Assembly: GCA_030390025.1 (NCBI GenBank)
Contig: CM059432.1
Coordinates: 38,814,001-38,878,000 of the forward strand
DNA length: 64,000 nt
Origin: Squalus acanthias
Taxonomy: Eukaryota
Direction of reading: 5' to 3'
The notes beneath the pieces are model-generated. The model was not told the DNA's origin, ran no database searches, and saw nothing but the letters and a program-made list of their open reading frames with translations. Below are positions 5,130-32,784 of the stretch, piece after piece. The translations under genes were made by a program, and so were the position numbers. How positions within the stretch are numbered: the stretch's first letter is position 1; every line of letters starts with the position of its first letter.

Positions 5130-5308
5130 CTGGTAAAAGCAAAATACATGACACTGATGATCGTGAAGGTGAGCAGGGTGATGGTGTGCGGCTTGTAGAA
5201 GAAGTCTATGGTGATATCCTCCACTTGCTGCTCGTTGATCATGCGGAAATGCAGTCTGTAATTAACATCATTTTTGCTGATTGTCCTGCTGCCTCTGCTG
5301 GACGCCAT
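5130..5308 (-). CDS. PTDSS1: Phosphatidylserine synthase 1, coding exon 1 (179 nt)
   Basis: Encodes [46 protein letters not shown]...YFAFTR, the recognisable PTDSS1 N-terminus. Kozak GCCATGG; donor AG|GTACTG. Confidence 0.97.
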
Positions 5309-5611
5309 GGCCGCGGAGTTCTGCCCGAGCCGCCAGCAGCGCCCGACAACCGCCCAAGCTGAGAGTGGGAGACGTTTAAGCGTCAAACGCAGTCAGCCCT
5401 CTGGTGCAAGTCGGATAGAAGCTTCCGCCACACTATCTATTAGGATATGCGTCGAGATAAGGCGGAGTTTGTTTTAAAATATAGAAGTTCTTTTATAGTG
5501 ATCTAAAAGGAAAAAGGTTTGTGTCAATCCCCCCTTTTTTGTGGTGGACTCTCCCGTTGTGGAAACGGTTACATTTCAGAACGTCCTTTACGCACGTGGG
5601 GCGGCGGCACG
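5309..5611. promoter_or_regulatory. Bidirectional CpG-rich promoter of PTDSS1/MTERF3, probably including a non-coding MTERF3 exon 1
   Basis: Head-to-head genes and CpG-rich sequence. ETS/GABP-like CGGAAG on minus at 5422-5427; E-box CACGTG at 5593-5598. The MTERF3 ATG exon has an acceptor 22 nt upstream of its ATG, so an upstream exon is required. The TSS is not visible. Confidence 0.65.
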
Positions 5612-6590
5612 GCGAGCCGGGGCTGGGCTTTGGGCCGGGCCTATGGGCACGGTGAGCCGGGGCTGGGCTTTGGGCCGGGCCTGTGGGCACGGTGAGCCGG
5701 GGCCGGGCCTGCGGGCACGGTGAGCCGGGGCTGGGCTTTGGGCCGGGCCTATGGGCACGGTGAGCCGGGGCTGGGCTTTGGGCCGGGCCTATGGGCACGG
5801 TGAGCCGGGGCTGGGCTTTGGGCCGGGCCTATGGGCACGGTGAGCCGGGGCTGGGCTTTGGGCCGGGCCTGTGGGCACGGCGAGCCGGGGCTGGGCTTTG
5901 GGCCGGGCCTGTGGGCACGGCGAGCCGGGGCTGGGCTTTGGGCCGGGCCTGTGGGCACGGTGAGCCGGGGCTGGGCTTTGGGCCGGGCCTGTGGGCACGG
6001 TGAGCCGGGGCTGGGCTTTGGGCCGGGCCGGGGCTGGGCTTTGGGCCGGGCCTGTGGGCACGGCGAGCCGGGGCTGGGCTTTGGGCTGGGCCTGTGGGCA
6101 CGGTGAGCCGGGGCTGGGCTTTGGGCCGGGCCTGTGGGCACGGCGAGCCGGGGCTGGGCTTTGGGCCGGGCCTGTGGGCACGGCGAGCCGGGGCTGGGCT
6201 TTGGGCCGGGCCTGTGGGCACGGCGAGCCGGGGCTGGGCTTTGGGCCGGGCCTGTGGGCACGGCGAGCCGGGGCTGGGCTTTGGGCCGGGCCTGTGGGCA
6301 CGGCGAGCCGGGGCTGGGCTTTGGGCCGGGCCTGTGGGCACGGCGAGCCGGGGCTGGGCTTGGGGCCGGGCCTGTGGGCACGGCGAGCCGGGGCTGGGCT
6401 TTGGGCCGGGCCTGTGGGCACGGCGAGCCGGGGCTGGGCTTTGGGCCGGGCCTGTGGGCACGGTGAGCCGGGGCTGGGCTTTGGGCCGGGCCTGTGGGCA
6501 CGGTGAGCCGGGGCTGTGGGCAGGGTGTAGCTGGGCCGAGGTCGGGCCTGTGGGCACAGTGAGTCGGGGCTGTGGGCACGGTGAGTTGGG
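5606..6590 (+). repeat. 40-bp GC-rich minisatellite, about 23 units, degenerate at the 3' end
   Basis: Unit GGGCACGG(T/C)GAGCCGGGGCTGGGCTTTGGGCCGGGCCT(G/A)T with five G>=3 tracts per unit. Confidence 0.97.
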
Positions 6591-10221: not shown

Positions 10222-10788
10222 TCTTTGTTTAATAATATCAGAAATTTAATGAAAAGCTAAGAATTTGAGTTAAATAATGGGAACTCTCAGACTCGAAGAT
10301 TAAAAATCGATTTGAAATTTACTCCTTGAAATATCTTCTGCAAGTACAGTCAACTCTTCTCAATTTCAAGTTGCTTAATTCAAATTATCTATTCATTCAA
10401 ATTGAAATCATGCAAAAACGTGCCAAGTGCTGTTTTATTAAAATTACTTGTTTGTTTAAATTTGTACTACTGGGGAATTCATTTTTTTTTCACGCAAAAA
10501 CAACTTTGAATTAACGGAGCATATTGGAATAGGCATTTTTTTCTGTATAGCTTAGTTCATTTGTTAATATTTTAAATCAGAAATAGAAAGTGAAAATATA
10601 GTCTCCATTTCATCTTTCACTTTACTATTTTAAATCCTTAACTATTCAAAGGTTTAATGTTTTGAAACATTTAAAATTGTCTTTTTTAACTTTTAATTTA
10701 TAACCCTTACCAAAGTTTTTATGACTACAACTTGCAGTTTACTCATATTAAATTTGTTGTTTACAGGATCAAGTTAAATTGAATAAAA

Positions 10789-11110
10789 ATGTCCTCACTG
10801 TGTCACCGCATTTGCTACCGTTGGTCTTCACTGAGAATCACTGGTCTAGTTTTCTCTTCAAACCAAGAAATAAAGGTGTTGCCTATCGCATCATACAGCC
10901 TTCAACCTCGGTCTGGTGTAGGTGTGCATCGATGCCTCTTAACTCAAAAACTCTGGAGGTTGAAAAATTCTAACTTCAGTTCTTCAGCAGCAGACTCGCC
11001 ACCAAATAAAGAACCTGCTTGGTTCACAGAAAGCAGTCTTTTGCTAAATGCAAACCACAACCATGGCAAAACGGAACTGTCTAGTCTGGCCACAGACGTA
11101 CAACCTGTAG
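10789..11110 (+). CDS. MTERF3: MTERF3 first coding exon (exon starts at 10767; mitochondrial-targeting-like N-terminus)
   Basis: Acceptor ttacag|10767; ATG at 10789; R/S/L-rich N-terminus MSSLCHRICYRWSSLRITGL...; donor G|gtaagc in phase 1, which matches the next exon. Confidence 0.88.
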
Positions 11111-12094: not shown

Positions 12095-12247
12095 TATTCG
12101 ATGTTGCCCCACCCCTATCTCCGTTTGAAGAAATATCTGAAGAAGAAGCTTTGAAAATTGAGGCAAGTCCTTCACTCCCTCCAACCTCTTTTACTCTGCG
12201 TGACTATGTGGACCGGTCTGAGACTCTAACCAAGCTGGTGCTTTTGG
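12095..12247 (+). CDS. MTERF3: MTERF3 coding exon 2 (153 nt)
   Basis: Encodes [51 protein letters not shown]; ccag| and |gtatgt. Confidence 0.96.
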
Positions 12248-12632
12248 GTATGTGCTAAATCTGGTAAAAGAAATACAAATAATTCCAGTATTTTTGAACA
12301 TTAATGTGCATGGCACCTTCATTTAGACAAGCTTCATGGTTAGTGTTTTTGAGTTAATAGTGCCATTCAAAGGTTGGATCACTGAGGTACAAGCGTATGA
12401 AAATGACAGAAAGGAAGAGACCAGCTGGTCCATCGAGCCTGTTCAATACGGTCATGTTGTAATTAAGCATTATGACCCCAAATGAACCCACCCGTCAGCA
12501 ACTCCTGGGAAAGGCAGAAAAATAATCCTAGGCCAATTCAGGGAAAAATAAATTCCTCTCTGACTCCTGAACGCGATCAAAACAAGTTCAGGAGGCCACA
12601 GTGACCATGGTGCATATCACCCAATAACTCTG

Positions 12633-13068
12633 AAGAACATAAGAATTAGGAGCAGGAGTAGGCCATACGGCCCTTCGAGCCTGCTCCGCCATTCAATGAG
12701 ATGATCTTCTACCTCATCTCCACTTTCCCGCCCAATCTCCATATCCCTTGATTTCCCTAGAGTCCAAAAATCTATCCATCTCAACCTTGAATATACTCAA
12801 CGACCGAGCATCCGCAGCCCTTTCGGGTAGAGAATTCCAAAGATTCACAACCTTCTGAGTGAAGAAATTTCTCCTCCCCTCAGTTCTAAATGGCCGACCC
12901 CTTATCCTGAGACTATGCCCCCTAGTTCTAGACACTCCAGCCAGGGGAAACAACCTCTCAGCATCTACCCTGTCAATCCCCTTCAGAATCTTGTATGTTT
13001 CATTGAGATCACCTCTCATTCTTCTAAACTCTAGAGAGTATAGGCCCAATCTACTCAATCTCTCCTCA
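12633..13068 (-). mobile_element. CR1 3' fragment
   Basis: [15 protein letters not shown]...RTRGHSL...FFTQKVVNLWN; gaacataagaa tail. Confidence 0.9.
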
Positions 13069-13139
13069 CCTATCTATTGCATGCTGTGATAATAACCTCA
13101 GCCAGGAATTCATCCAGCTGACGTTTGAACGATCACAGC

Positions 13140-13640
13140 TAATCTGCATTCCATGTACAAGCTGGCAACTTGTTCCAGAGGTTGATGACTCTCCGCGAGA
13201 TGAAAAATCTCTTGCCATGTAACCTAGTTCTGTGCTTATGTATTTTATATTGACATCCCCTGGTTCTCCCTGACCTATCTAATTCAAATAGTCTATAGAC
13301 ACAGACTAACTCCTTCATTATTTTTATTACTTCAATCAAATCTCCCCAAAGTCTACACTTTTCTAGACTAAAAAGACTCCGTGCTCTAAGCCTATCCTGA
13401 TAACTAAGGACTTTTAAACTAGATATCATTCTAGCGGCCCTCCTCTGAAACTTTTTCAGTGCTGCTAAATCTCCCACCATGTGAGGGGACAAAAAGCGGA
13501 TACAATATTCTAGATGAGGCCTAACCACAGTCTTGTTTAAGGATTTTATAGTGCTCTTTGTTATATATTGGATTGTCAGTGCGATACATTCCAGTACTCT
13601 ATTAGCCTTTATTAAAGCCTGGTGGCACTGATCATAAACT
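13140..13640 (-). mobile_element. Old, diverged CR1 fragment
   Basis: [25 protein letters not shown] and RRVINLWNKLP. Confidence 0.8.
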
Positions 13641-13993
13641 TTTAGAAAGTCATGGGAAAAGTTGAAATAGGCAACAGTGTACACTCACTATTTTCTTGTC
13701 TTGTGATGTTACTTTTAGTTTCCTCATCTCGTAGTTCACATGGTTCGTTCCCTGTCTGTGCTTATGTGTATCTCATTCTCTCAACCTCCATATATGCAGA
13801 AATCATTGTTAGGATTCTGGGACCAGTGATGTTGCTCTGTGCAAAGGTATATAGTTAACATGTATAAAAGTATAGTGACTTTAATTTTTTATGACTAATT
13901 GTCACAGTCAGTAAACAAATAAATGGCTATTAAGACATAATTATTTGACACTGCACACTGTTAATGTATTTTACTTTTAATCATATCATACAG

Positions 13994-14183
13994 GTGTGGA
14001 TCTGTCTAAACTAGAAGGGCGACCGAATGTGGCCAATATGTTGTTGCGATTGGATTTTGACAGAGATGTAAAAGAGCGACTTCTATTCCTGAAAGATGTA
14101 GGAGTAGAAGAAGATCTGCTTGGAGCATTCCTCACTAGGAACCCCTTCATCCTGACTGAGCACATGGAGAATCTACAGATGAG
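13994..14183 (+). CDS. MTERF3: MTERF3 coding exon 3 (190 nt)
   Basis: Encodes [63 protein letters not shown]; cag| and |gtaaag. Confidence 0.96.
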
Positions 14184-14956
14184 GTAAAGAACAGGATTGA
14201 GAGATCTATATGATAGACTGAGAAATGCCAAGAAACTGATGAGGGCTGCTAAGAGTGACCTTGAGGAAAACCTAGCAGAACAAAAGAACAGGAGTAGGCC
14301 ATTTAGCCCCTCGAGCCCATTCCTCCATTCAATGAGATCATGGCTGATCTGCGACCTAACTCCATATTTCTGTTAATCAAAGGTATTACCTTTGATTAAC
14401 AGAAATCTATCAATCTCAGGTTTAAAATTGACCCAGCATCAACTGCCGTTTGCGGAAGAGAGTTTCAAACGTCTACCACCCTTTGTGTGTGGAAATGTTC
14501 TCTAACTTTACAACTGAAAGGCCTGGCTCTCATTTTTAGACTATGCCCCCTAGTCCTAGACTCCCCAACCAGCAGAAATAGTTCCTCTCTATCTACCCTA
14601 TCAATTCCCCTTAATATCTTGAAAACTTCATTCAAATCACTCCTTAATTTTCTAAATTCCAGAGAATACAACCCTAGTTTGTGTAATCTCTCCTCATAAT
14701 TTAACCCTTGGTGTCCAGGTATCATTCTCGTAAAGCTACACTGCACTCCCTCCAATATCCTTCTTAAGGTGTGGTGCCCAGAACTGAACACAGTGCTCCA
14801 GGTGCTGTCTAACCAGGGCTTTGTATAGTTGAAGCATGACTTCTAACCCCTTGTATGCCAGTCCTCTAGATATAAAGGCTAGAATTCCATTAGCCTTTTT
14901 GATTATTTTTGTACCTGCCCATGACATTTTGTTGATCTGTGTAGATGGAACTCTAA

Positions 14957-15686
14957 GGGCTGATTTTCATTGACCCGTGGAGGCGGGTTTGGAGGCGTGT
15001 GGGGGGTTAAAATTGCGAAAACTGGTGGGCGGGCACAAGTCCGCCTCCACGCAATTTTCATTAAATCGTGTCTGCTGGTCCCGACTCCGTCCCGCCTTTA
15101 AGAGGCGGGATAGGCTGTTAAGGCCCTTAACAAGCACTAAATTGGCTCTATAATGCCATTTTGAAAGGCCTTTGTGATTTTAACCCTTGATCTACGTGAA
15201 GCACGCCTGTTGTGAACCACGATTGTGAAACCTGGCAGGAGCACATTTGGATGGCTGACTATCAGCTACAGGTGCACTACGGAGATGTGATGAAGGTAGT
15301 AGTAGTAATAGGTCTGAAAGTCGCCTCTGATGCTGCTCCATTGAAGGTCTTCAGAGACTGCCTGGCCTTTGCTATGAGAGGATGGATGCAAAAAAATCTC
15401 TCTCACTCACACAGCAGACTTAGAGCTGCTGCTCATTTTGCATCCAAGTCCTCTCACAGCAAAGGCCAGGCAGTCTCTGACCTTCAATGCAGCAGCAATG
15501 ATGACATCATCAGAGGCGACTTTCAGACTGAAACCACCAATTGGTTCATGGGTTCCCACATGCTGGAACTCAATTGCCCAATTAGGTGAAAATTGCATCA
15601 ATCTCCCACATCCAATTGCAGTCGGGTGGATAACACGAAATGCGGATGACACGACCCCAACCCACCCCAGTATCAAAATCCAGCCC
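14957..15686. mobile_element. PIF/Harbinger-type non-autonomous element (MITE)
   Basis: TIRs GGGCTG-ATTTT / AAAATCCAGCCC with TAA TSD at 14954-14956 and 15687-15689. Confidence 0.8.
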
Positions 15687-15710
15687 TAAGTCTCTTTGGA
15701 CCTCCACTGC

Positions 15711-15877
15711 AACATTATTGATTATTTGTAAAAGTAATCATTGCATTTATATTAACTAAGGCTGTTTTTAAGGCTTTATTTTTTACTGTGATGGATGAAT
15801 GTAATGGATTTACTATGTAATGGATTTACTATGTAATTGATGAGTTGTACCGGTATTATTGTTTTTGAATAAAAGAG
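15711..15877 (+). mobile_element. 167-bp AT-rich retroposed 3' tail (LINE-like)
   Basis: 15-bp TSD TTGGACCTCCACTGC at 15696-15710 and 15878-15892; ends in AATAAAAGAG. Confidence 0.7.
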
Positions 15878-16392
15878 TTGGACCTCCACTGCTTCTAGCT
15901 TTTCCCCATTTAGAAAGTACTCTGATCTATTCTTTTTAGGTCCAAAGTGGATGACCTCACACTTGCCTATATTGAAATCCGTTTGCCACAGTTTTGCCCA
16001 TTCACTTAATCTATTAATATCTCTTTGTAATTTTATGCTTCCATCTACACTGCTTACAATGCGCCTATCTTTGTGTCATCAGCAAACTTGGATATGTGGC
16101 TCTCTATCCCGTCATCTAAGTCGTTAATAAATACAGTGAATAGTTGAGGCCCCAACACAGATCCCTGTGGGACACCTTTACCCTTCTTCATCTAGTCACA
16201 TCCTGCCAATTAGAATACCTGTCTATTATCCCTACTGTCTATTCCTGCACCTGCCACTCAGCCAATCTCCTAACCAGGTCAATAATTTGCCTTCAATTCC
16301 ATGAGCTTGAACTTTAGCTAACAGTCTCTTATGAGGGACTTTATCGAATGCCTTCTGGAAGTCCATATAAATAACATTCATAGACATTCCCC

Positions 16393-17311
16393 TGTAAGTC
16401 AATCAAGTGACCTCTCAGAGTTCTTGGACAAGACACAAATAGGCAGCAGCCAGTATATTTGAGCAATAGATCAGATTTATTAAGCTTACAGCGTAATCAA
16501 TACTTAACATTAGGCAATAGTCGAAAAGAATAGCTCGCAGCCCTTGGTCTCTGGAGCCCTTCGGACACAGGCAACGTCGTCGTAAGTCTGTTCCTTTTCT
16601 TCGCAGCAAATCTCTGTGTGAAGTTGTTCTTTGAGTATCGAGGTTTAAACCCTTTTCTTATCAACAGTTTGTTTGGCCAGTGTCCATATCTGGTCTTTAA
16701 CAAAATCATCATCTTTAATTGGTTCTAATGGTCAAAATACCATTGTCACTCAGGTTAAGGCTAGTAACCTGGCCACTCCTTTTTCAGTACTTTTTCCCCT
16801 AACTCTGCCTCGCTGTCTTATCTTGTTTATAGCTTTTCACCCCATTGGAATTTACCATATCTCTTTCATTTCCTGCCTCCCTGGTACAAGGCCTTTATAC
16901 CAAGGGCCCATATCAGCGCTGTTTCACTTGTCTTGAGGTATCCAGACTATCTCACTTTAATCTACCAGATAAATACCTTAACTTTCATGATCTCTCTCAT
17001 TTTATGTTCTTATACTAATTATCCTTTAAATATTGTTGCAATTAGTTTTGTTAATCAACTCTAATTTCTACTTAGCATTATAATATGTTATTTAACAATT
17101 TGACCTTCACGTGCAGCCTGTGGTTGTTTGTTATCAAAGCTTAGTCAAAACTGCTTTTGACTGTCCTCGCAGCTGCATTCTGAACAAGTCTTAGTATTTT
17201 AGTTACCCAGGAGTAATTATGGGTAATATTATTTGGTCAATGGCTACACTTGAATTTATACATATATGATTCTCGTCTACTAAATATCTTTAAATATCAG
17301 CCTTTCGTACA
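16393..17311 (-). mobile_element. Solo LTR (919 bp)
   Basis: TGTA...TACA termini; 4-bp TSD CCCC at 16389-16392 and 17312-17315; the host CR1 rejoins cleanly; minus-strand AATAAA at 16476-16481. Confidence 0.8.
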
Positions 17312-18692
17312 CCCCTGTCGACTACTTTAGTCACCTCCTCAAAATATTCAATCAGGTTCATCAGGCATGACCTACCCTTTACAAATCCATGCTGGCTCTC
17401 TCTAATCAGCTGGAAATTTTCGAGGTGTTCAGTCACTCCATCCTTAATTATAGGCTCTAGTAATTTCCCGACAACAGATGTTAGGCTAACTGGTCTATAA
17501 TTCCCTGTTTTCCCCCTCTCGTCTTTGTTAAATAGTGAAGTGACGTGCAATTTTCCAATCTAAAGGAACGGTTCCTGAATCGAGAGAACTTTGGAAGATC
17601 ATAGTTGGGGCATTTGCAATGTTCTCACCTACTTCCTTTAAAATTCTTGGATGAAAATCATCTGGTCCTGGGGATTTGTCGCTCTTTAGTGCCATTATTT
17701 TCTTCATTACCGTTAATTTGTTTATGTTAATTATGATAAGTTCCTGTCCCTGATTCAATGTCCAGCATGCTATTCTCTTCCTCCACTGTAAATACTGACG
17801 TAAAGTAATTATTTGACATGTCCGCCATTTCCTTATTTTCATTTATAATATTACCATTATCAGTTTTTAAGGGGCCCACATTGCTCTTAACTACCCTCTT
17901 TTTCCTAACATAATTGAGAAAGCTTTTTGTGTTGATTTTGATATCCCTTGCAAGTTTCTTTTCATACTCCTTTTCTGTAGCTCTTACTATGTTTTGTCAC
18001 CCTTTACTGTTAAACTGGTTCTGTATCGCGTTAAATTCTTTTTGAACACCTTCCACTAATCTTCTGTCGTTTTGCCCATTAACAGATTTGCCCAGTTTAC
18101 TGTGGACAGTCTCTGTCTCATCCCATTGAAGTTGGCCTTACCTAAATCTAGAATCTTAGCCGTTTCGCATTTCTCCCTTTCAAACACAATATTGAACTGA
18201 AATCATATTATGGTCGCTATTAGATAAATGTTCACGCACCGTTAGGCTATTAACTAAATCTGGCTCATTACTAATTATTAAAGCTAATATGGCCTGTCCC
18301 GTTGTTGGTTCTTGGAGATATTGTTGCAGAAAATTATCCTGAACACACTCAAGTTATTTGCTACCTTTCTGAAATGAGCTCATCTGCTCACCCCAGTCTA
18401 TATGGAAGTTAAAATCCCCCATTAAAACCACTCTGCCTTTACTACATGCTTGTCTAATCTTTGCATTAATACATTCTGCCACGTCACAGCTGCTACCAGG
18501 GGCCTATACACAACTCCCACTACAGTCTTCAATCCTTTTCTATTTCTTAATTCTACCCATAAAGTCTCCACTGCCTGCTTACCTCTCATTATATCATCTC
18601 TTATCATAGAAGTAATTTCATCCTTAATCACTAATGCTCCTCCTCCCACTCTATCACATTCCCTATCCTACCTGTAGACCTTATAACCTGGT

Positions 18693-19707
18693 GTACGAGT
18701 GGTGTGCCACAGGGATCAGTGCTGCGGCCTCAACTTTTTACAATTTATATTAATGACTTGGATGAAGGGACCGAAGGTATGGTTGCTAAATTTGCTGATG
18801 ACACAAAGATAGGTAGGAAAGTAAATTGTGAAGAGGACATAAGGAGGCTACAAAGGGATATAGATAGGTTAAGTGAGTGGGCAAAAATCTGGCAAATGGA
18901 GTATAATATGGGAAAATGTGAAATTGTCCATTTTGGCAGGAAGAATAAAAAAGATGCATATTATCTAAATGGTGAGAGATTGCAGAGCTCCGAGATGCAG
19001 AGGGATCTGGGTGTCCTAGTGCATGAATCGCAAAAGGTTTGTATGCAACTACAGCAAGTAATTAGGAAAGCTAATAGAATGTTATCGTCTATTGCGAGGG
19101 GAATTGAATACAGAAGTAGGGAGGTTATGCTTCAGTTATACAGGGCATTGGTGAGACCACATCTGGAGTACTGTGTTCAGTATTGGTCTCCTTATTTAAG
19201 GAAGGATGTAAATACGTTGGAAGCAGTTCAGAGAAGGTTTACTAGACTAATACCTGGAATGGGCAGGTTGTCTTATGAGGAAAGGTTGGACAGGCTAGGC
19301 TTGTATCCGCTGGAGTTTAGAAGAGTAAGAGGTGACTTGATTGAAATATATAAGATCTTGAGGGGTCTTGACAGGGTGGATGTGGAGAGGATGTTTCCTC
19401 TTGTGGGAGAATCTAGAACTAGGGGTCACTGTTTAAAAATAAGGGGTCACCCATTTAAGACAGAGATGAGAGATTTTTTCTCACAGAGGGTCGTGAGTCT
19501 TTGGAACTCTCTTCCTCAGAGGGCGGTGGAAGCAGAGTCTTTGAATATTTTTAAGGCAGAGATAGATAGATTCTTGGTAAGCAAGGGGGTGAAAGGTTAT
19601 CGGGGGTGGCGGGAATGTGGAGTAATCGGATCAGCCATGATCTTATTGAATGGTGGAGCAGGCTCGAGGGGCCGAGTGGCCTGCTCCTGCTCCTAATTCG
19701 TATGTTT
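18693..19707 (+). mobile_element. Young 5'-truncated CR1 with an open 330-codon RT C-terminal frame
   Basis: [24 protein letters not shown] and [13 protein letters not shown]; inserted into the host CR1 endonuclease domain. Confidence 0.92.
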
Positions 19708-21081
19708 GTATATTTAGTTCCCAGTCCTGACTGTCTTGCAGCCATGTCTCAGTAATGGCTACAATGTCATACCCTCCAAGGTGAACGTGCGCCTGCAGTT
19801 CATTCAATTTATTCCTTATACTCGGTGCATTTGTAAAAGAACATTTATTTGAGCCACACACCCTAACCTGTCCTTCTGCTCTAAAGTTGTTTTTCTCTCA
19901 CATTTCTTATTTCTCCTGATTTAATTAAATTGCATCTTTTTAGTTTTCCCTTTACCTGTAGTGCCTAATGCACAATTTCTGACTATTGCTCTACTCTCTT
20001 CCTTTTCATTTGTTTTAGAATTATTATTTATACTACCTTTTCCACCTGAGCGCTTCCCCCCACCGCCCATTTACTAGTTTAAAGTGCTTGTGACCGCCCT
20101 ATTTATCCTTTCCATTCGGACCCTGGTCCCAACCTGGCTCAGGTGGAGCCCATCCCAACAGAACAGTTCCTTCCTGTGGAACCCCTCTTTCCCACACCAC
20201 TCCTTCAACCACGTGTTCACCGCCCTAATCTGCTTAGCCCTATGCCAATTTGCATGTGGCTTGGTTAATAATCCTGAGATTATAACCCTTGAGGTCCTGT
20301 TTTTTTAATTTAGCTCCTAGCTCTTGATACTCTCTGAGCAGGACCTCCTGCCTACTCTTTGGACCACAATTACGGGATCCTCCCCCCTCCTTCTCCAATA
20401 TCCCTTCAAACTGATTCGGGATGTCCCTCACTCTGGCACCAGGTAGGCAACATACCTTGTGGGACTCTCGATCCTACTTACAGGGGATTCTATCCGTCCC
20501 CCTAATTATTGAATCCTCTACAACTACCACATTACGCTTCCCCTCCTCCTCCCTGTGGACAGCCTCCTGCTCCAAGGTGCCATGGTCAGCATTCTGGCTG
20601 TCCTTCTGACAGTCTTCATCCTTATCCTTACAGGTAGCAAGTACATTGTACCTGTTGGATAGGATCAGTTTCTGTGGATCCTCGTTGTCTTTCTTACCTG
20701 GGTTCCCCTTACTCTGCACACTATCGGTCACACCAACCCCATTCTGATCCTGCACCTCTCTATGAGGTGTGACTGAGGTCGAGAGCAAACTGTCCAGATG
20801 CTCCTCCCCTCCTTTATGTGTTGGAACAGTAAAACGTTATTCAACTGTGTCAGGAGTAAACACCGGGTGCAAAGAGGGGTTGGCCCACTAAAAAAAGACA
20901 ATGAGGAAGTGGTGTCTGAAGATAGAAAAAATGCTGAAGGAATTAACCATTGTGTTTCAAGTGTTCACAAAAAACAATGGCAGGAGAAATGCCAGAATTG
21001 GGGTACAGTTTAAAGGTAAATGTAGACTGAAATATTTAAAGTCACAAGAAATGACATATTGGGGAGGTTGTTAAAGCTCAA

Positions 21082-21400
21082 AGAAAGAAAAAAAAGACTT
21101 GCATTTATATAGCGCCTTTCATGACCAAAGTGCTTTACAGCCACTAAAGTGCTTTTTGAAGTGCAGTCACTGTTGTAATGTAGAAAACACGGCAGCCAAC
21201 TTGCACACAGCAAGCTCCCACAAACAGCAATGTGATAATGACCAGATAAACTGTTCTAGTGATGTTGATTTGAGGGATAAATATTGGCCCAGGACACTGG
21301 GGAAAACTCCCCTGTTCTTATCGAAATAGTGCCCATGGGATCTTTTACGTCCACCTGAGAGGGCAAGCGGGGCCTCGGTTTATCATCTCATCCGAAATAC
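21082..21400 (-). mobile_element. Deu-domain SINE fragment
   Basis: aaatagtgcccatgggatcttttacgtccacctgagagggcaagcggggcctcggttt; tail cttgcatttatatagcgcc. Confidence 0.75.
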
Positions 21401-22061
21401 AAGGTAGATGAGGCTTCTGGCTCTGACAATTTTTTTCCCAGGGTTCTGAAGAAATTGGCTCAAACGATTGCGAGTCTTCTTACAGATATTTTTCAGAGTT
21501 CACTGGACTTTTGCCAAATCCCAGTGGATTGGAAAATAGAAAATGTGACTGCCATCTTCAAAAAGGGGCAAAGGATGAACCATCAAATTATAAACCTGTG
21601 AGGCTTGCCTCCACTGTAAAGGGCATTAGCTAATCCGAGACAGTCCGCATAGTTTTAGAAGTGGGAGGTCATGTTTGACTAATTTATTAGATTTCTTTGA
21701 GGAGATGACAGACCTAGTGGGGAGGGACAGTGGATATTATCTACCTGGATTTCAGGAAAGCGTTTGACATTGTCCCACATGATAGGGTACTACATAAGGT
21801 CCAAGTCCAAAGGATAGATGGGAATGTATTAGAATACTATGGCAACGTATTGGCAACCATGTGTTTGGTTGGTAGACGACAGCGAGTAGTAGTGGATGGA
21901 TAGGTATCTGGTTGGCAGCTAGTTACCAGTGGAATGTCACAAGATTCAGTGTTGGGGCCACTGTTGTTTATAATTTTTATAAACGATTTAGAGGAAGGAA
22001 TTGTGTCCAAATTTGCAGACGATACCAAATTAGGAGCAGTGACAAATGATGAATACCAATA

Positions 22062-22605
22062 CAGGTTGAGCGTCCAAAATCCGTAGATCCGGACTCCGGG
22101 ACGATTGGTGGTAGGGTCGTCCGGAATCCGTAAAATGATCCGGAACTCCGGATTTTGGACGCTCAACCTGTACTTCAAAAAGCCATTAACTTTCGTTGTC
22201 TTTTTTTGAAAAATCCTATGAAAAATACGAGTGATGCAATAAAACTTTAGTGTTGTGTTTTATCCTCCTTAATCTGCACAGCTCCACTAAGTGTTTCCAC
22301 CAGGCTGCGGCCGTGGCACCACGCCGCCCTGGTGGCCTAGTGTGGGCCATCGGATGCTCTGCAGAGCTCGCAGCGTCCCTCCCCTTTAACAGAAGGGGAG
22401 GGGCGGAGAAACACGTCAGCGCTACGCGGAGCGGCCCAGGCATTTCCGGACTCGGAACGTGTTTCTGATGTCCGAAGTCCGGAAACGCCCGAGCTCAGGT
22501 TGCGATATTTCCGGACTTCAGACATCAGAAACACGTTCCGAAGTCCGGAAAAACATGAAAACCGGCCTCGGTCCCGAGGTTGCCAGATTCAGGATGCTCA
22601 ACCTG
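22062..22605. mobile_element. Tc1/mariner (Tigger-like) MITE with three TIR copies
   Basis: TA|CAGGTTGAGCGTCC at 22062; inverted copies end at 22170 (followed by TA) and at 22605. Confidence 0.8.
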
Positions 22606-23409
22606 TGTACACAAATTCAAAAGGATCTTGACAAGCTCGATCAGTGGATGGAGAAATGGCAGATGTAGTTTAATACAGGGAAATGTAAGGTTATAAGATT
22701 TGGCAGAGGGAAGGTTGATACAGATTTTGTGCTAAATAGGAAAATACGTGAGGTATCTGACAGGAGAGAGATCTTGGGGTTTTAATGGAGAGGTCACTAA
22801 AACCATCAGCACAATGTTCCCAAGTTGTTTAAAAAGATAACAGGATGTTGGGATACATAGCAAAGTTTAAATCCGGAGAGGTCATTTTAAAACTGTATTT
22901 GGCCCTGGAGAGACTGCATCTGGAGCACTGAATGCAGATTTGGTGTCTCTATTTTAAAAAGGCTATTCAATTATTAGTGGGAGTACAGAGAAGGGCTGCA
23001 CAGTGGATCCTGGAACTTAAGGGAATGACGTATGAGGAAAGATTGACTACCCTGGGTCTTTCCTGTCTTGAAAAGAGAAAACTGAGCAGTGTTATAATAG
23101 AAGTGCTTAAAATTATAAAAGCTTTGAACAATTTGGATCCAACTAAACTTTTCTGTTGTGTGCAGAATTTAACCACGAGGGGTCATATAAATACACATTA
23201 AGGACAAAAGCAGATAGGAAATGCAGTAAGAACTTTTTTATTAAAAGCGTGGTAAGTATGTGGAACACATTACCAGTGGTGGAATAATAGGTTTCAAGAA
23301 GGAACTAGACAGGTTCTTGTCAACAAATGGGATTCAGGGCTATTGGATCTAATTGGTGGAGCAGGCTCTAGGGGCTGAATGACCTACTCCTTTTCCTAAT
23401 GTTCCTAGG

Positions 23410-24035
23410 TGCTGTCTTTCAGATGAAACATTAAACCAAGGCCCAGTCTGCCTGTTTAGGTGGATGCAAAATGATTCCACGGCACCATTCAAAGAAGGGC
23501 AGGCAATTGTCCCAGTGCCCTGTCCAACATTCCTTTCTCAACCATCACCACCAAAAAGCACTACAGGAAACTCTTTATTAACCGGCACCGACGGACCGGC
23601 GTGGTGCCGGTTAATCAAAAAGTCCGGATAATGGAGAGTTATATCTCCCAACGTACGAGAGCCCCGTACACACTGACATGCGCCTGCATTCGGAGCTCCG
23701 TCTCCCCGGGGACCGCCAGCTGACCATCTGTCGTGTCCGCTGCCTACCCGGGCTGCACATTCCCCTCCCAATCTACACGCTCCGATACAAGGCAAACGCC
23801 TCGGGGTTTTTTTTTAAGTTAATTTTAAACGAGAGATGAAGGAAAACCCCGGTTACCTACTCAAGAATTTTGCCGGTTAAGAGAGATTTCCGGATATTTG
23901 GGTACCGGTTAATAAAGAGTTTCCTGTAGTTGGTAATTCATCTAATGTGCTGTTTGTGGGACTTGCTGTGAGCAAATTAAGTGCTGTATTTGCCTACAAA
24001 ATAACAGTGACTACACTCAAAAGTAATTTATTTCT
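23410..24035 (+). mobile_element. Deu-domain SINE interrupted by a MITE
   Basis: gctgtctttcagatgaaacattaaaccaaggcccagtctgcc...gctgtttgtgggacttgctgtg. Confidence 0.7.
23564..23926. mobile_element. Tc1/mariner (Tigger-like) MITE
   Basis: Perfect 22-bp TIR CAGGAAACTCTTTATTAACCGG with TA TSD on both sides. Confidence 0.88.
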
Positions 24036-24769
24036 TGCATGAGAAACAAAAAGGAAGTATGAATTTGGAGATTGTATTCTATTTGCTATTATCTGACTGA
24101 ACTCATGACTCATGAACATTCCTCGATTGCAGTCACCTGGTGGAATTCAGATACATTTTAAGGTGCATCTAATTGAAATCTTTCACTTTTTAAATGAAAC
24201 ATCTTCAGAAAGAAGTGCTAATTTTGTAATCTATCACATCCATATAATGTATCCAAGTCCTCGAAGAAGAAGGTAAATGTTTAAAAGAATCAGAGTGCAA
24301 TGGCCATGCATAAAAGGAGCTGTGACAGGCTTGTTTATCGATGTACCACACCATGGTGCAAATGGCTGTCTTTTTGTCTTGAATAATAAAGGGTCATGAG
24401 CAGTTCATAGCAAATTGGATTCCATGAGGGTTCACTTTCAACTTCAGAGGGATGGGTGGGGGAGGGGGTGGAACGGAAAGCTGATTATCAGATCGGCTGC
24501 CCGTTATACACCCCGCCTGACTTTCCTTTTCATTGAAGCCATTTGGCTCACAACTGTGGTATTGACACCTGAAATAATGATGTCACAGCTGAGGTATATG
24601 TCACCCCAGCTCTTGTCTTTTCTGCTGATTAATGTTAGATTTACCACTTTGGGGGCTTCCTTGCCAACCTCCTTCCCATCCTGCTCACCCCACCCACCGC
24701 TGTTCCCTTGGACTCTGCCGGCAGATCAACAATCGCTGCCCCTCTCTGCATTTCCCTCTGGAATGTCCA

Positions 24770-25672
24770 CTTGCAACAACAACAACTTATAGCACCTTTA
24801 ATGTAGCAAAATGTCACAAAGCACTTCACAGGAGCGTTATAAAGCAAAATTTGACACCGAGCCACAAGGAAATATTAGGGCAGATGAGGTAGGTTTTAAG
24901 GAGTGTCTTAAAGGAGGTAGAGAAGCAGAGAGGTTTAGGGAGGGAATTCCAGAGCTTAGGCCCTTGCAGCTGAAAGCACGGCCGCCAATAGTGGAGTAAT
25001 TGTTACTCACGAACAAGCCCTTTGCTATCCACAAACCTACTGTAGATGATTGTATTGATTGACTGAAATTCAGCTTTCAGGTGGTGGCACCTTGCCAAGC
25101 CTCCCCACCTGGCTATACTTTCCAGCACCCAGCACCTGCCCAAACTGCCAAGGTAGCAGTGTTGTCCTTATCAAGTCACCACTTGAACTCTCCCCTGCTA
25201 CTCTGGCGTCTTCACATTCTTCACACAAACTTGAGTTTATCTTCTGCTGAGACTCTCATCATGCCATTATTATCTCCAGACTCAACTATTCCAATGATCT
25301 CCTGGCTGACCTCCCGTCCTCCACTCTCTAAACTTCAGCTCATGCAAAGCTTTGTCTGTATCCTTTCCCATACCAAGTGCCTATCGCCCCTGTCCTCAGT
25401 GACCTCCCTTGGCTCCCATTCCCCAAAGCTTCAAATTTAAAATTCTTATCTTTGTGTTTAAATCCCTCCATGGTTTTACCCTTCCCAATCTCTGTAACCT
25501 TCTCCAACGCTATAAACCCCCTCAAACTCTCCATTCCTCTGACTCCAGCCTCTTATGCATTCCCCCTGCCCGCACCTAACCATTGGCTGCTATGTCTTCA
25601 GCCACTCTGGAATTCCCTCCTTAAACCTCTCTCGCCTCCATTTTCTCCTTTTAAGAGCCCCTTTAAACCTCA
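24770..25672. mobile_element. L2 fragments (minus about 24770-25000; plus about 25225-25672, with the tail resuming at about 27086-27225)
   Basis: TIGGRAFSC and PIAPVLSDLPWLP; caacaacaac tail. Confidence 0.75.
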
Positions 25673-27085
25673 CATAGAAACATAGAAGATAGGAGCAGGA
25701 GTAGGCCATTCGGCCCCTCGAGCCTGCTCCGCCATTCGATGAGATCATGGCTGATCATCCAAATTCAGTACCCTGTCCCTGCCTTCTCCCCATATCCCTT
25801 GATACCTTTAGCCTTACGAAATATCTAACTCCTTCTTGAATATATTTACTGACTTGGCCTCAACTGCCTTCTGTGGTAGAGAATTCTACAGGTTCACCAC
25901 TCTCTGGGTGAAGAAATTCCTCCTCATCTCTGTCCTAAATGGCTTACCCCTTATCTTTAGACTGTGACCTCTTGTTCTGGACTCACCCGCCATAGGGAAC
26001 ATCCTTCCTGCATCCAGTCTGTCTAGCCCTGTTAGAATTTTATAAGTTTCAATGAGATCTCCTCTCATTCTTCTAAACTCCAGCGAGTATAAGCCCAATC
26101 GACCCAATCTCTCCTTGTACGTCATTCCTGCCATCCCAGGTATCAGTCTGGTGAATCTTCGCTGCACTCCCTCCATGGCAAGAACATCCTTCCTCAGATA
26201 AGGCAACCAAAACTGCACACAATACTCAAGGTGTGGCCTCACCAAGGCCCTGTACAGCTGCAGCAAGACATCCTTGTTCCTGTACTCAAACCCTCTCGCT
26301 ACGAAGGCCAACATACCATTTGCCTTCTTAACCGCCTGCTGTACCTGCATGCTTACCTTCAGCGACTGGTGCACAAGGAAACCCAGGTCTCGTTGCACTT
26401 CCCCTTCCCCCAATCTATTGCCGTTCAGATAATAATCTGCCTTTCTGTTTTTGCCACCAAAGTGGATAACCTCTCATTTATCCACATTATACTGCATCTG
26501 CCATGCTTCTGCCCAATCACCCAACCTGTCCAAATCATACTGGAGTTTCTCGGCATCCTCCTCGCAGCACACACTCCCACCCAGCTTTATGTCATCTGCA
26601 AACTTGGAGATATCACATCTAGTTCCCTCGTCTAGATCATTAATATATATAGTGAATAGCTGGGGTCCTAGGACCGATCCCTGCGGAACCCCACTAGTCA
26701 CTGCCTGCCACTCGGAAAAAGACCCGTTTATTCCAACTCTTTGCTTCCTGTCTGCCAACCAGTTCTCTATCCAAGTCAGTACCTTGCCCCCAATCCCATG
26801 TGCCTTAACTTTACACGCTAATCTCTTATGCGGGACCTTATCGAAAGCCTTCTGAAAGTCCAAATACACCACATCCACTGGTTCTCCCTTATCTATTCTA
26901 TCAGTTACATCCTCAAAAAATTCCAGTAGATTAGTCAAGCATGATTTACCTTTTGTAAATCCATGTTGACTTTGTCCAATCCTGCCATTGTTTTCCAAGT
27001 GCTCTGCTATTACATCTTTTATAATGGACTCTAGCATTATCCCCACAACCGATGTCAGACTATAATTCCCCGTTTTTTCTTTACC
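25673..27085 (-). mobile_element. CR1 RT/3' fragment inserted in L2
   Basis: [33 protein letters not shown] and KFADD; catagaaacatagaa tail. Confidence 0.93.
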
Positions 27086-27571
27086 ACCACATGTTTGAGC
27101 AAGTTTTTAGTCACCCCTCCTAATATCTCTTGGGCTCGATGTACGTTTTTTCCTTACTGCTCTGTGAAATGCCTTGTGACATTTTCCTATGTTAAAGGAG
27201 AAATATAAATGTAAGTTGCTGGTTGTCTTGTTGGTAGCAATAGTAGTATTAGTGTTAAATCCATACAATAATCCTGCATTACTTACTGGATATTACAAAA
27301 GCCTAGATAAGTATCAATTATAAGATCATCATTTTGTTTAAAGCTACAAAAAATGTTGAGATTAACTTAATAAAAACTTGTTTCTTTGCAATGTTAAGTA
27401 TGTAAGGACGGTGTTCATTGTACTAAATAATTAGATATATAGTATGTTCCATAATATCCCATGAAATTTTATACAATCCAAATATGTATGCAAAATATAG
27501 TAAATATTTGGTGACGTATAGATGTTTTAAGTCTTTCAAGACAACATATATGGATTTTCCTTTTATTTTAG

Positions 27572-27719
27572 AATACGGTACCTGCAATCTAAGGAATTCA
27601 GCAAAGGAGCCATTTCAAGGATGGTGTCAGGAGCTCCTTATTTGTTAAATTTTAGCGTGGAAAGACTGGACAACAGGCTAGGGTTCTACCAGAAAGAACT
27701 GGGGCTAAATATGCAAAAG
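27572..27719 (+). CDS. MTERF3: MTERF3 coding exon 4 (148 nt)
   Basis: Encodes [49 protein letters not shown]; tttag| and |gtaatg. Confidence 0.96.
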
Positions 27720-28009
27720 GTAATGCCGTATAATTAATTGAATACCGTGAATGTAGAGTTCTCATGAGCTGCACGTGGTGAGACCTGACATTGTGGGCTG
27801 AGGAGACCTTATATAATTGCTGTCTGTGTATGCCAGTCATGAACCCAGAATAACTCTACCTCAGTGCCACTTATCCTGTCTTTGATCATTACGATCAGTC
27901 ACCAATGTTAGGCATGGCATGAGACTGTTAGTTGGAATGGTCAATTAATGGAGAGTCTAGTTTTTAAAGTGGTGCTTAATTACTTGGGCATTTATAAAAA
28001 AAGGAAAAA

Positions 28010-28430
28010 CTTGTACTTATTTGGCACCTTACCTTGTCTCAAAGCACTTCACATGAAATGACTTGCTTTGAAGTGCAGCCACTTTTGTACACAGCAAAGA
28101 TACCACAAAGAGTAACGCGATGGATATTAATTAATCTGGTTTTAATGGTCTTGGTTGAGGAATGAATGTTGACCAGTGCACTAGACGAGTTCTCTGCTAG
28201 TCACAAATTGTACCATGGAATCTTTAAAATCCACCTAAATTACTAAAACAAGAAAACTGGGCCTCAGTTTAATGCCTCACCGAAGAATGGCATCTCCGAC
28301 AATGTAGGGCTTTCTTGGTACTGCACTGGAGTACCAGCCTAGATTGTGTGCTTAAATTGTGGAATATACCTTGAACTCACGAATGTCTGAATCCCAAGGT
28401 GAGAGTGCTATAAACTGAGCCTAACTAGAT
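28010..28430 (-). mobile_element. Diverged tRNA/Deu-domain SINE
   Basis: Colinear with the 48560-49000 copy (gcactggagt, gagagtgcta...ctgagc). Confidence 0.65.
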
Positions 28431-29314
28431 TGTCAGAAGTATGATTTATATGAGACAAGTGTATGTTTTTGTTGAGACTGCAGATCCCCTTGTGATGTGA
28501 ATAGTTGGCATTAGTACAAAGGCAAAGATATGCTGCTTCTATTATTGGAGAGATTGATTCTCAGAGAGAAAAAAATCCCTTTTACACTGAAACAGGATTC
28601 CTGCTGAAATTCTGTTAAGCGTCCTTGGTGAATCATTTATTAATCTACACAAAAATGTCTGAGCTTTAGCTGTTTAACTACTCCCTGAAGATCACCTCCA
28701 TTAGTAAAAAAAAATGCCGAGATGTCTTTCTCCCCTCTCCTTCCTATGAAATGCATCTGGCTGAAAAGGTTACCAGGCAACTTTCGATGCCATCTTAATG
28801 CATGAGAGCAACCTAGGGGTGAATACTAATTCCCCCCTCTGGAGAATTCAAGGCATCCCCCAGCACGGCTGAGAGGAATTCACCATGTGGATTTCACATG
28901 GATGTGAAATCACCACGTGAGGTTTCCTGGATATGAAATTACACCCAATTGTTGTGGCTCAGCAGGTTGGAACTGCAGAGCAAGAAGCTCTTATTTTTTT
29001 TAAATTGTTGAGCAATCTATGATCCTACTGTCTATTTATATTACTACAGCATAATTTAATATTGATTTAGAGTAAATATGCTGGTAATGAAGTGATGACT
29101 CTTTTTGCTATATTGTGGTTAAAGCAAAGTAGATTTGAACCTTATTGCAAGCTCACTCTTCAGTGAATCTGTCATATATTGAAACACCTTTTAAGTTGAA
29201 ATGAAATTATGACCGTTCTTCATCAGCGCCGCTGTTTGCTTCAATTGCATGAGGAAATGTAGATGGTATTTTTATTTATTTGCCAAAACAATAACAGCTG
29301 CATTCTTTGTGATA

Positions 29315-29560
29315 ACAACAACTACATAGCACCTTTAACGTCGTAAAACATCCCAGGGTGCTTTACAGGAGTGTTTTCAAACAAAATTTGACACCGAGCC
29401 ACATAAAGAGATATTACGATAGGTAAACAAAAGCTTGGCCATGAGAGAGAGGGAGGCGGAGAGGTTTAGAGGAGAAATTCCAGAGCTTGGGACGTAGGCA
29501 GAAAATGGTGGAACGATGAAAATCAGGGATGTGCAAGAGGCCAGAATTAGAGGAGCCACG
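29315..29560 (-). mobile_element. L2 3' fragment
   Basis: aacaacaac tail; ttgacaccgagccacata. Confidence 0.75.
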
Positions 29561-29619
29561 ACTCAACTCAATAGACTTCAGCAGAGCTTCTCTGGGAGCG
29601 CATAGAAAACTTGTACTGG

Positions 29620-29910
29620 AGGAAAAGCAGAAAATGCTGGAAACACTCAGCAGGCGTTATTTTGGAGTGATTTGTAGTGAACTGATCGGAGTAAATTAGA
29701 TTTCCAAAATTGGAGGTGATCTATAGCAAGACTTTAAGTGATGAGAAATTCATTGACCATTAATTCTAAAATGAAAGCAAACTGCTGGAAATGCACAGCA
29801 GGTCCTTCATCGCCAGATAACAGAAATAATGGGTCTCTACTCAAAACATTAACCTTTCACCAGATTGGGTTCTGACGATAGGTCTCTACTTGAATAGATA
29901 GCCTCTGAAA
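29620..29910. mobile_element. Decayed Penelope-derived short repeats
   Basis: aaaagcagaaaatgctggaaacactcagcagg motifs and a decayed ctgacga..gtctc..gaa motif. Confidence 0.4.
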
Positions 29911-29985
29911 GCAAAGAGAGATGTTATCTATTTCTGTCAATTTCCACATTTAATGTGAGTGTGTGTGTGTCTTATTTTCTCCTAG

Positions 29986-30057
29986 ACTCGTGATCTGGTC
30001 ACTCGTCTCCCCAAATTGTTAACGGGCAGCTTGGAGCCAATAAAAGAAAATCTCAAA
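29986..30057 (+). CDS. MTERF3: MTERF3 coding exon 5 (72 nt)
   Basis: Encodes [24 protein letters not shown]; cctag| and |gtaggt. Confidence 0.96.
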
Positions 30058-30899
30058 GTAGGTGAAGCAGCAATAATTTTCCCTGGAAAGTATTTATAAG
30101 ACGCCACGCATCTCTTGTGTCATTCTCTCAAAAGTGTGTGATCCTCTGAGCAAGCCACTTGGTATCGTGGCTATTTTTCCCCACGTATGCAGGACGTAAC
30201 ACAATTACTGCTGATTTTGCTGGAAGAAATGGCATTGCCATTCAAACAACACTTTTTTTCCCTCTTGGTCATGTTATATTTCAGTTAGGATCCCCCCAAC
30301 GCAGTCACCGCTAATTCTCAAGGTGCTCAAGGTGCCATCGACTTCGTGCTTCCTCCAGCCAGTTCTTGCTGACCATTAAATTTCAAGCACTTTCCCAGTT
30401 GGTACAACTTCCAACAAAATGTAAAAGAAAAATAAACTGCAAATGATTCAGTGATCCATACCAGATAACCAGGTACCAGTTTTCATCCCTGGTCTGTGCT
30501 AAGTTAGCCAGGGTGGCACTGGGATTGCTGCAGTTTGTATCAGCATGCATAGGCTGGAGAAAGGAAAGTCGACCAGCGTTTTCCCCTGGTTGCAATCCAT
30601 TGCTGGAGAGTGCGTGGGTGTACATACATGGACATTGAATGAGGACACACTCCATTGTAATGCCCCTCTTTTCTTCCCCAACAGTTGAAGAGCCTGCTTA
30701 TTCTCACTGTCTAGACTTGCTAGTCAAGAATGGCTTAACCGACGGTCACACAATGCAATTCTCAAAGGAAAGGCTTTGAGCTCGAGTCCAGACAAGCTGG
30801 CTGGGTGAGCTGCACAAGGTGCAAGATGCTCAGGAAAGCACAATGGGATATCTATGGTTTTAATTGTTTATATAGCTGGAACCATCACAATCAATCATT

Positions 30900-31925
30900 T
30901 AAGGGAAGGTCATGTCAGACTAACTTGATTGAATTTTTTGAGGAGGTAACAAGGAGGGTTGATGAGGTTAGCGTCTTTGATGTAGTCTACATGGATTTTA
31001 GCAGGGCTTTTGACAAGGTCCCACATGGCAGACTGGTCAGAAAAGTAAAAGCCCATGGGGTCCAAGGGAAAGTGGCAAGTTAGATCCAAAATTAGCTCAG
31101 TGGCAGGAAGCAAAGGGTAATGGTCGACGAGTGTTTTTGTGACTGGAAAGCTGTTTCCAGTGGGGTTCTGCAGGACTCAGTACTAGGTCCCTTGCTTTTT
31201 GTGGCATATATCAATGATTTAGACTTCAATGTAGGGGGCATGATTAAGAAGTTTGCAGATGATACAAAAATTGGCAGTGTGGTTGATAGTGAGGAAGAAA
31301 GCTGTAGACTGCAGGAAGATATCAATGGACTGGTCAGGTGGGCAGAAAAGTGGCAAATGGAATTCAATCCGGAGAAGTGTGAGGTAATGCATTTGGAGAG
31401 GGCTAACAAGGCAAGGGAATACACAATAAATGTTAGGATACTGAGAAGTGCAGAAGAACAGAGAGACCTTGGAGTGCATGTCCTCAGATCCCTGAAGGTC
31501 GCAGGACGGGTAGATAAGGTAGTTAAGAAGGCATACAGGATACTTTCCTTTATTAGCCGAGGCATAGAATATAAGAGCAGGGAGGTTATGCTAGAACTGT
31601 ATAAAACACTAGTTAGACCACAGCTAGAGTACTGTGTACAGTTCTGGTCATCACATTACAGGAAAGATGTGATTACACTAGAGAGGGTACAGAGGAGATT
31701 ACAAGGATATTGCCAGGACTGGAGAATTTTAGCTATGAGGAAAGATTGGATAGGCTAGGGTTGTTTTCTTTGGAACAGAGGAGGCTGAGGGGAGACTTAA
31801 TTGAGGTGTATAAAATTATGAGGGGCCTAGATAGAGTGGATAGGAATTACCTATTTCCCTTAGCAGAGAGGTCAATAACCGGGGGCATAGATTTAAAGTA
31901 ATTGGCAGAAGGATTAGAGGGGAGT
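30900..31925 (+). mobile_element. CR1 RT fragment
   Basis: [23 protein letters not shown] and [13 protein letters not shown]. Confidence 0.92.
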
Positions 31926-32194
31926 TGATAATTGTGTCACATTTCAGGATTTTTAAAAACTATTTTCCCTCACAGAGGATTTGGAAAGAGTTAGATTTAA
32001 TTGTGATTTAAAGCATAGTATGTTCCAAAAAGAGGCATTAAAATGATACATGGGTAATATGGTAATATTCCCCCCCCCCCCCCCTCCCAACGAAACAATA
32101 AGCAATATGTTCACTTGTCTTGGTAATTAATAAATACGTCACCCATTGTGTTGGGATGGTGCTGGTCCTGGACACTCATCAGAGGGTCTGGGAA

Positions 32195-32261
32195 GCCTTC
32201 CCTCCTGGCGGTGGGCACAGGCCTTCCCTCCCGGCGGTGGGCACAGGCCTTCCCTCCCGGC
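32195..32261 (+). repeat. 26-bp tandem repeat, about 2.6 copies
   Basis: Unit GCCTTCCCTCC(T/C)GGCGGTGGGCACAG. Confidence 0.85.
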
Positions 32262-32784
32262 TGTGAACTTAGGAAGAAAGGAAAAACCAGAGAGCGATAG
32301 GGGCAGTCAGTTCCAGCAAAGACTGAGGTCAGTAAGGCTTTTTTTTAAACAGAAAGCTGCAAGAGGTAGTCAAGCCTAGCAAAGGCTGTGTGAAGATTAG
32401 AATACTGGGAAGTAGTTATAAATTATTTTGTTTTAAGTCAAGCCAAATGCCTGCTCATGTGGAGAAGTGTAGCATGTTCATGATACTATTACGCAAAGAC
32501 AAATTGTACTGAGTGAACGACCAAATATCCAATGCAGATCACAAGGGGGATATGGTTGCTAGACCCCTTGGTTACATTATCGTGTAGCTGGATATTGGGC
32601 AATAAGGGCACGCCCTCAAACATAAAATGCTCAGACTGCTTACTGGCACTGCTGCACCATAGAGGATGTCTATGGCAAGACCTGTAATATGTAACCAGTG
32701 GCTATTGTTTTTGCAAACTCTCATGCTATAACTTCACAATATAGCCACCAGGGGGTGTGTGAAGACGCTTTCTCTCACTGCTTA

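Follow-up and report, generated by a model that had tools for sequence, protein, structure and literature searches.

A splice-donor minisatellite at the non-coding 5′ end of MTERF3 in the shark Squalus acanthias

The head-to-head PTDSS1 and MTERF3 genes and the repeat between their coding exons

The window, by which we mean the whole 64,000-nucleotide stretch of Squalus acanthias contig CM059432.1 analysed here, contains the first coding exon of PTDSS1 on the minus strand and the MTERF3 gene on the plus strand. The PTDSS1 exon occupies 5130..5308, with its ATG at 5308 and a donor at 5129 read from the sequence, and its 59-residue translation matches residues 1-59 of human PTDSS1 (PDB match, E 1.1e-28). 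MTERF3 was identified by a match to PDB 3M66 (E 1e-21) and by Pfam mTERF, found in three of its five exon pieces; among the six pieces tried, Pfam gave no match for those of exon 2, exon 3 and PTDSS1. Exon 2 (10767..11110, plus strand) has its acceptor at 10767, an ATG at 10789 and a donor at 11111, and tblastn placed six further plus-strand coding exons within 12095..37738 (near 12097, 13993, 27570, 29986, 35859 and 37541). Together, the seven coding exons, from 10789 to 37738, cover residues 1-415 of homologue P0003. Eight MTERF3 homologues were found, all from sharks or rays, the closest being a sawshark protein (86%). Because a methionine aligns to 10789 in all eight, six of which begin at that residue, 10789 is the MTERF3 start and exon 1 is non-coding. 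A minisatellite at 5606..6590 sits at this non-coding 5′ end, head-to-head with PTDSS1; the first-pass annotation had placed it at the MTERF3 5′ end, and the PDB, Pfam and homologue matches downstream bear out the gene assignment.

Between the PTDSS1 exon and the minisatellite lies a putative shared promoter and 5′ region (5309..5605). In human, according to PMC7054214, the two genes are paired just as closely and the PTDSS1 5′ UTR overlaps the MTERF3 promoter. A motif scan of 5309..5605 gave no match to TATA[AT]A, and the observed/expected CpG ratio is 1.14 at 5300-5499. Directly before the repeat are an E-box motif at 5593-5598 and a GC-box motif at 5599-5604.

Several other features of the locus were recorded. 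An N-terminal extension of MTERF3 from an ATG in the repeat is ruled out by an in-frame stop at 10780, which also precludes here the 17-residue extension (residues 1-17) annotated before the conserved methionine in catshark MTERF3 isoform X1 (P0004). In sawshark P0001 (isoform X2), 24 residues corresponding to the exon at 29986-30081 are missing, which, on alignment, suggests an exon-skipping isoform. Other short tandem repeats lie in or just after MTERF3 at 32195-32265, 39002-39053 and 39620-39758 (26-, 23- and 37-bp units). The start of intron 1 holds nested retroelement remnants on the minus strand (6910-8260), of which the piece at 7467-7931 is 92% identical to 51902-52376; we take them to be a Tx1-type LINE end surviving as a broken frame (6947-7267), an RTE-like piece (7467-7931) and CR1-like pieces. 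An open frame at 52407-52658 (+) presumably resembles a UQCRB exon, which would agree with the gene order on human chromosome 8.

The minisatellite itself is GC-rich (~80%, observed/expected CpG 0.58-0.67) and is built on a 40-bp unit. Tandem Repeats Finder (TRF) reports period-40 arrays over 5606-6516 (91-98% matches, scores 708-1164) and a 22-bp tail at 6541-6590, the degenerate 22/34-bp region beginning at ~6500. Splitting on the donor motif yields 26 donor-like motifs on the plus strand from 5612 to 6581, 14 with GT and 12 with GC, arranged in blocks; the first is a GC motif (5612), the first GT is at 5652 and the last reads ACG/GTGAGT at 6581 (the slash marks the exon–intron boundary), these three points as originally described. 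The description of 40-bp units that each contain CACG/GYGAGC holds for the array as such but is too strict, since only 20 of the 25 spacings are 40 bp (the remaining five being 28, 63, 22, 34 and 22) and the motifs at 6525 (AGG/GTGTAG) and 6559 (ACA/GTGAGT) deviate. Across the successive units the donor is repeated as 11 copies of ACG/GTGAGC, one of ACG/GTGAGT and 12 GC versions. The triplet nine nucleotides upstream of the boundary is GTG in 20 motifs, ATG in four, GCG in one and GGC in one. The four ATGs (5643, 5751, 5791 and 5831, within 5643..5833, plus strand) each lie 9 nt 5′ of a GT donor (5652, 5760, 5800 and 5840, respectively), as first reported, and the array contains no further ATG.

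G/GTRAG arose in 6,087 of 200,000 shuffled units (3%), and the plus strand has 12 occurrences of it inside the array and 21 in its remaining 63 kb, a comparison in which the 12 copies are non-independent events. A chance origin of the donor motif in the unit is unlikely, though possible. Five GGG runs occur in every unit, and of the 27 matches to a G-quadruplex pattern on the plus strand of the window, 23 fall within the array; G runs close to donors can enhance splicing. A folding z-score of -5.4 was not read as a sign of selected structure, since tandem repeats bias the shuffles.

Splice junctions into the MTERF3 acceptor

Among public sequencing runs, exon 2 was contained in 16, none of them recorded as RNA, 10 guessed to be RNA and all available as contigs; four (X1, X3, X5 and X9) were compared, over 10450-11300 only. 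In all four, 11110 is followed directly by exon 3 (from 12095), so they contain spliced RNA, and three of the four join acceptor 10767 to sequence further upstream. Runs X1 and X3 derive from organism A, X5 from organism B and X9 from a more distant relative, organism C. Exon 2 of the window is matched without difference by both organisms A and B; across the intronic parts compared, B differs at 0 of 169 letters and A at 3 of 159 plus a gap, and at 1 of 73.

The contig of run X3 continues from acceptor 10767 into an array unit, of which it shows 29 letters (ending ...CCTGTGGGCACG), demonstrating that the donor in the unit is real and that one copy of it is truly spliced. Fifteen of the 26 motifs are preceded by these 29 letters: the GT donors 5692, 5960, 6000, 6463 and 6503, together with ten of the GC sites. 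There is no match at 5612, 5720, 6103 or 6383, at any of the four ATG donors, or in the tail, 6581 included. The spliced unit carries GTG, not ATG, at -9. The earliest unit that fits is that of donor 5692 (5663..5697, plus strand), which is the second GT unit; neither 5612 nor 5652 of this allele agrees with the letters, in RNA that comes from another animal.

A different junction was found in run X5, in which 10767 is joined to 5140-5168, a stretch unique in the window, through a donor upstream of the array (AAG/GTGAGC at 5169; loose end at 10765). This 3′ end of an alternative MTERF3 first exon (5140..5168, plus strand) lies antisense within PTDSS1 exon 1, and its ATGs at 5148 and 5157 open the same out-of-frame ORF overlapping the MTERF3 start (75 and 72 codons). 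Donor 5169 is the first G/GTRAG past 4900 on the plus strand. It is encoded by PTDSS1 coding sequence, and the PTDSS1 and MTERF3 transcripts overlap at their 5′ ends.

In run X9 exon 2 differs at 13 letters and by a 9-base gap. The run has 81 loose letters at the exon boundary, and the 30 compared align to the array unit at 23 of 27 columns with a score of 36, reached by none of 2,000 shuffles, and carry GTG. An assignment of this exon end to the unique promoter stretch 5544-5562 was weaker (score 22, equalled in 44 of 2,000 shuffles). The bases missing from organism C lie at 10929-10938, and the deletion preserves both the MTERF3 frame and the overlapping frame. We also observed that the tail of the array (6499-6590, in 22-, 34- and 22-bp units) has GGGCAGG and CTGGGCCGAG in common with the organism C exon end; as judged from these shared letters, the tail may be an older layer of the repeat. 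The fourth run, X1, extends into the intron to 10711, where its end letters are presumably sequencing adapter, and gives no exon-1 junction information.

How far these ends can be read depends on the contigs, which are simplified paths of a k=31 graph (Logan preprint). In a graph simulation without simplification, a single junction together with read-through RNA left 29 exon-1 letters, as in X3 and X5, and the 29 letters were identical for donors 5692, 5960 and 6503. When ATG- and GTG-type junctions were both kept, only 8 letters remained, and when the 5169 and array junctions were both kept, one remained. It follows that the GTG form in X3 and the 5169 form in X5 were each either the sole path or the one that survived, and less abundant forms may have been lost. 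A 29-letter break was rejected as proof that exon 1 contains several units, because unspliced RNA alone yields the same break. Contig depth (15.9 in X5, 103.6 in X3) is a poor measure.

These junctions bear directly on the first-pass proposal that the donor of a non-coding exon 1 had been tandemly amplified. The unit does hold a real first-exon donor, as seen in X3 and in the unit-like end in X9, and neither an origin of all junctions into 10767 outside the array nor an MTERF3 start downstream of 6590 was found; the amplification history would be a matter of reconstruction. What the proposal had missed is the additional donor outside the array at 5169.

Upstream reading frames

The same annotation had suggested that splicing from the ATG units (ATG GGC ACG/GAT) creates an out-of-frame upstream ORF that overlaps the MTERF3 ATG at 10789 and stops at 10973. 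The frame is correct: each of the four ATGs, when its own donor is spliced to 10767, opens a 71-codon ORF with its stop at 10971-10973, 137 nt before the end of exon 2. The splicing is not borne out, as the ATG-type junction was seen in none of the four runs, in contigs that drop minor forms and come from other animals. The array junction that was seen has GTG at -9, which leaves the proposed translation control without its upstream start codon in that spliced copy, and the idea of tuning through upstream ORFs is at present unsupported. Upstream ATGs in the overlapping frame do reach mature mRNA by way of the 5169 junction of X5, which brings two. Messages with a stop more than 50-55 nt before a junction are subject to nonsense-mediated decay; the overlapping form could be lost in this way, so that the absence of an ATG-type junction is not decisive.

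The frame depends on the donor. From the ATG at 5643, the ORF is 71 codons long when donor 5652 is used, 19 codons for 5692 and 30 for 5720; the 19-codon ORF ends at 10777, 11 nt before the MTERF3 start, and the frame moves with each added unit of 40 nt. One consideration speaks for the first-pass annotation: on this allele, a transcript that begins 5′ of 5643 would keep one or more upstream ATGs in its leader whichever GT donor it used. The context of the array ATGs (C at -3, G at +4) is middling. The 71-codon ORF is unsupported as a conserved protein: of seven substitutions in organism C, six change its residues and four change those of the MTERF3 frame, with no stop introduced, a comparison based on small numbers.

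Origin and use of the repeated donors

Minisatellites whose units span an exon–intron boundary and repeat its donor are already known from human F7, IFI6, CBS, LMNB2 and PDGFA, as set out in PMC1557585. That paper gives 37 bp and 5-9 copies for the F7 intron 7 repeat (Borensztajn et al. 2006), 31 bp and 15-20 copies for the CBS intron 13 VNTR, and units of 100 bp for LMNB2 and 81 bp for PDGFA; for IFI6 (6-16) intron 2, an authentic donor and 25 pseudo-sites are credited to Turri et al. 1995 in PMC1557585 and PMC4526556. By the account in PMC1557585, only the first donor is used in F7, LMNB2 and PDGF and the first three in IFI6 and CBS, mutation of the upstream sites in F7 activates the next donor, and a title cited there states that one substitution, in the second repeat of CBS, prevents alternate splicing.

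The MTERF3 array belongs to this class. Its units are of minisatellite size and lie head to tail, as the TRF period and spacings show, the donor recurs from unit to unit, and the unit spans a real exon–intron boundary, as seen in the X3 junction and the unit-like exon end of organism C. In so far as those sources describe the human cases, F7 is similar in unit size, in spanning the boundary and in repeating the donor into the intron, but it concerns an internal coding exon with identical donors of which only the first is used, whereas MTERF3 has a non-coding first exon, mixed GT and GC motifs and four ATG units, and the junction seen is not at the first motif of this allele. IFI6 is likewise a gene with some 26 copies of a donor towards its 5′ end, the second and third being used too; its extra donors alter the protein isoform, whereas those of MTERF3 would alter only the leader and any upstream ORF. 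CBS, LMNB2 and PDGFA share the reiterated donors, and the CBS substitution follows the same logic as GT versus GC units, but there the exons are coding and copy-number variation is documented, while for MTERF3 one allele has been seen. MTERF3 differs in its non-coding exon, in mixing GT with GC and ATG with GTG units, and in having another, antisense first exon. Among open-licence papers and bioRxiv preprints, we found none that ties a minisatellite donor to an upstream ORF.

The reading that we favor, with a probability of roughly 0.55, is that the 3′ part of exon 1 and the donor that follows it were amplified, that an early GT donor is used, and that the other copies are intronic. Tandem copying would have taken in the last part of this non-coding exon, the donor and a small number of intronic bases; transcripts beginning just before or in the first units would splice to 10767 from a usable GT donor among the most upstream ones, and the remaining copies would stay in intron 1 as unused pseudo-donors. 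The RNA form would then end in a GTG unit, at donor 5692 on this allele or at the first GT unit where 5643 has G, and transcripts from further upstream would take the first strong donor they meet, 5169, and bypass the array. The alignment of organism C suggests that the unit was exonic for the most part and that GTG preceded ATG, which would make ATG a later change, spread to four units and with little role. The GC and GT unit types may go back to a pair of short, similar sequences on either side of the original unit; this would explain the GT/GC blocks, and 5612 would then be old exonic sequence rather than a donor that has been broken.

In favor of this account, the 29-letter length in X3 is as expected from a k=31 graph break, organism C has a unit-like exon end with GTG, and 5169, spliced in X5, is the first G/GTRAG past 4900; the human precedents in PMC1557585, with use of the first donor or the first three, would be consistent with it by analogy. 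Predicted folding of the leader, with an assumed start at 5560, is -12.5 kcal/mol for donor 5612, -34 for 5652 and -60 for 5692, and ranges from -253 to -660 (the latter for 6581) for donors 5960-6581, whose leaders carry four upstream ATGs from the same start; given such folding and the four ATGs, it is implausible that productive mRNA comes from deep donors, except where transcription begins within the array. On the other side, neither 5612 nor 5652, the first motif and the first GT of this allele, agrees with the observed junction, so a strict most-upstream rule fails unless the allele or the start site differs. There is also a single informative array junction, from a near-identical organism, and its 29 letters fit 15 donors, while in organism B, with no differences from the window in either piece compared, the surviving junction is 5169.

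Two rival accounts give the array a more active role. In the first, which extends the first-pass proposal and which we estimate to be unlikely, several donors would be used, so that the 40-nt units shift the frame of the upstream ATG, the ORF either overlapping the MTERF3 start (stop 10971) or ending before it (10775 or 10780), with ATG-type mRNAs hidden by nonsense-mediated decay. The frame table for the ATG at 5643, the 137 nt between the overlapping stop and the next junction, which exceed the 50-55 nt limit for decay, the GT donors in all four ATG units and the same ORF opened by the 5169 exon all agree with this account, and donor choice in a non-coding exon is free of a frame limit. Three donors are used in IFI6 and CBS, as PMC1557585 reports. 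Against it stand the ATG-type junction missing from all four runs, the GTG of organism C, by which ATG is probably the derived state, the overlapping ORF without sign of protein constraint there (6/7 vs 4/7, on small numbers) and the middling ATG context. Slightly more doubtful to us is that the array is mainly promoter DNA, with scattered starts inside it, 3′ of the ATG units, and a short exon ending at a deeper GT (5960, 6000, 6463 or 6503), giving mRNA without upstream ATGs; copy number, if relevant, would then affect PTDSS1/MTERF3 transcription. The X3 junction fits these four donors exactly, the E-box and GC box directly before the array, with no TATA match in 5309..5605, and the base composition and CpG ratio of the array suit a promoter, and the missing ATG form would be accounted for; yet organism C has a first exon of at least 82 nt with one unit-like end, needing no internal starts, and transcription in X5 begins far 5′ of the array.

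We regard as very unlikely that the main first exon is that of donor 5169, or another as yet unseen, with the array mostly intronic passenger DNA. It would fit that in organism B, which equals the window at all 345 exonic and 169 intronic letters compared, 5169 is the only junction found. Against this, the 5169 exon has two ATGs that open the overlapping ORF, exon 1 ends in unit sequence in organism A as well as in C, and the X5 contig is the shallower, for what depth is worth. Libraries can lose exons of 80% GC, and an array-derived exon could drop out in this manner. We add one further reading that we think improbable: a polymorphic 40-nt repeat would act as a frame dial on the 5′ leader, with GT/GC setting which donors are open, ATG/GTG setting which units start an upstream ORF, and every additional unit switching the ORF between two outcomes, an overlap with the MTERF3 start and a stop shortly ahead of it. 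The array ATG units and the 5169 exon would feed the same ORF, coupling promoter and donor choice to MTERF3 mRNA decay and translation.

The MTERF3 array provides a further natural test case for donor choice among tandem copies. It is of extra use in that its non-coding exon imposes no frame filter and its GT/GC and ATG/GTG marks can be distinguished by long reads. If use of a GT donor other than the first holds in a genotyped animal, it would be a departure from the upstream-first rule of F7; and were the frame-dial reading true, the repeat would control translation via splice choice and upstream ORFs.
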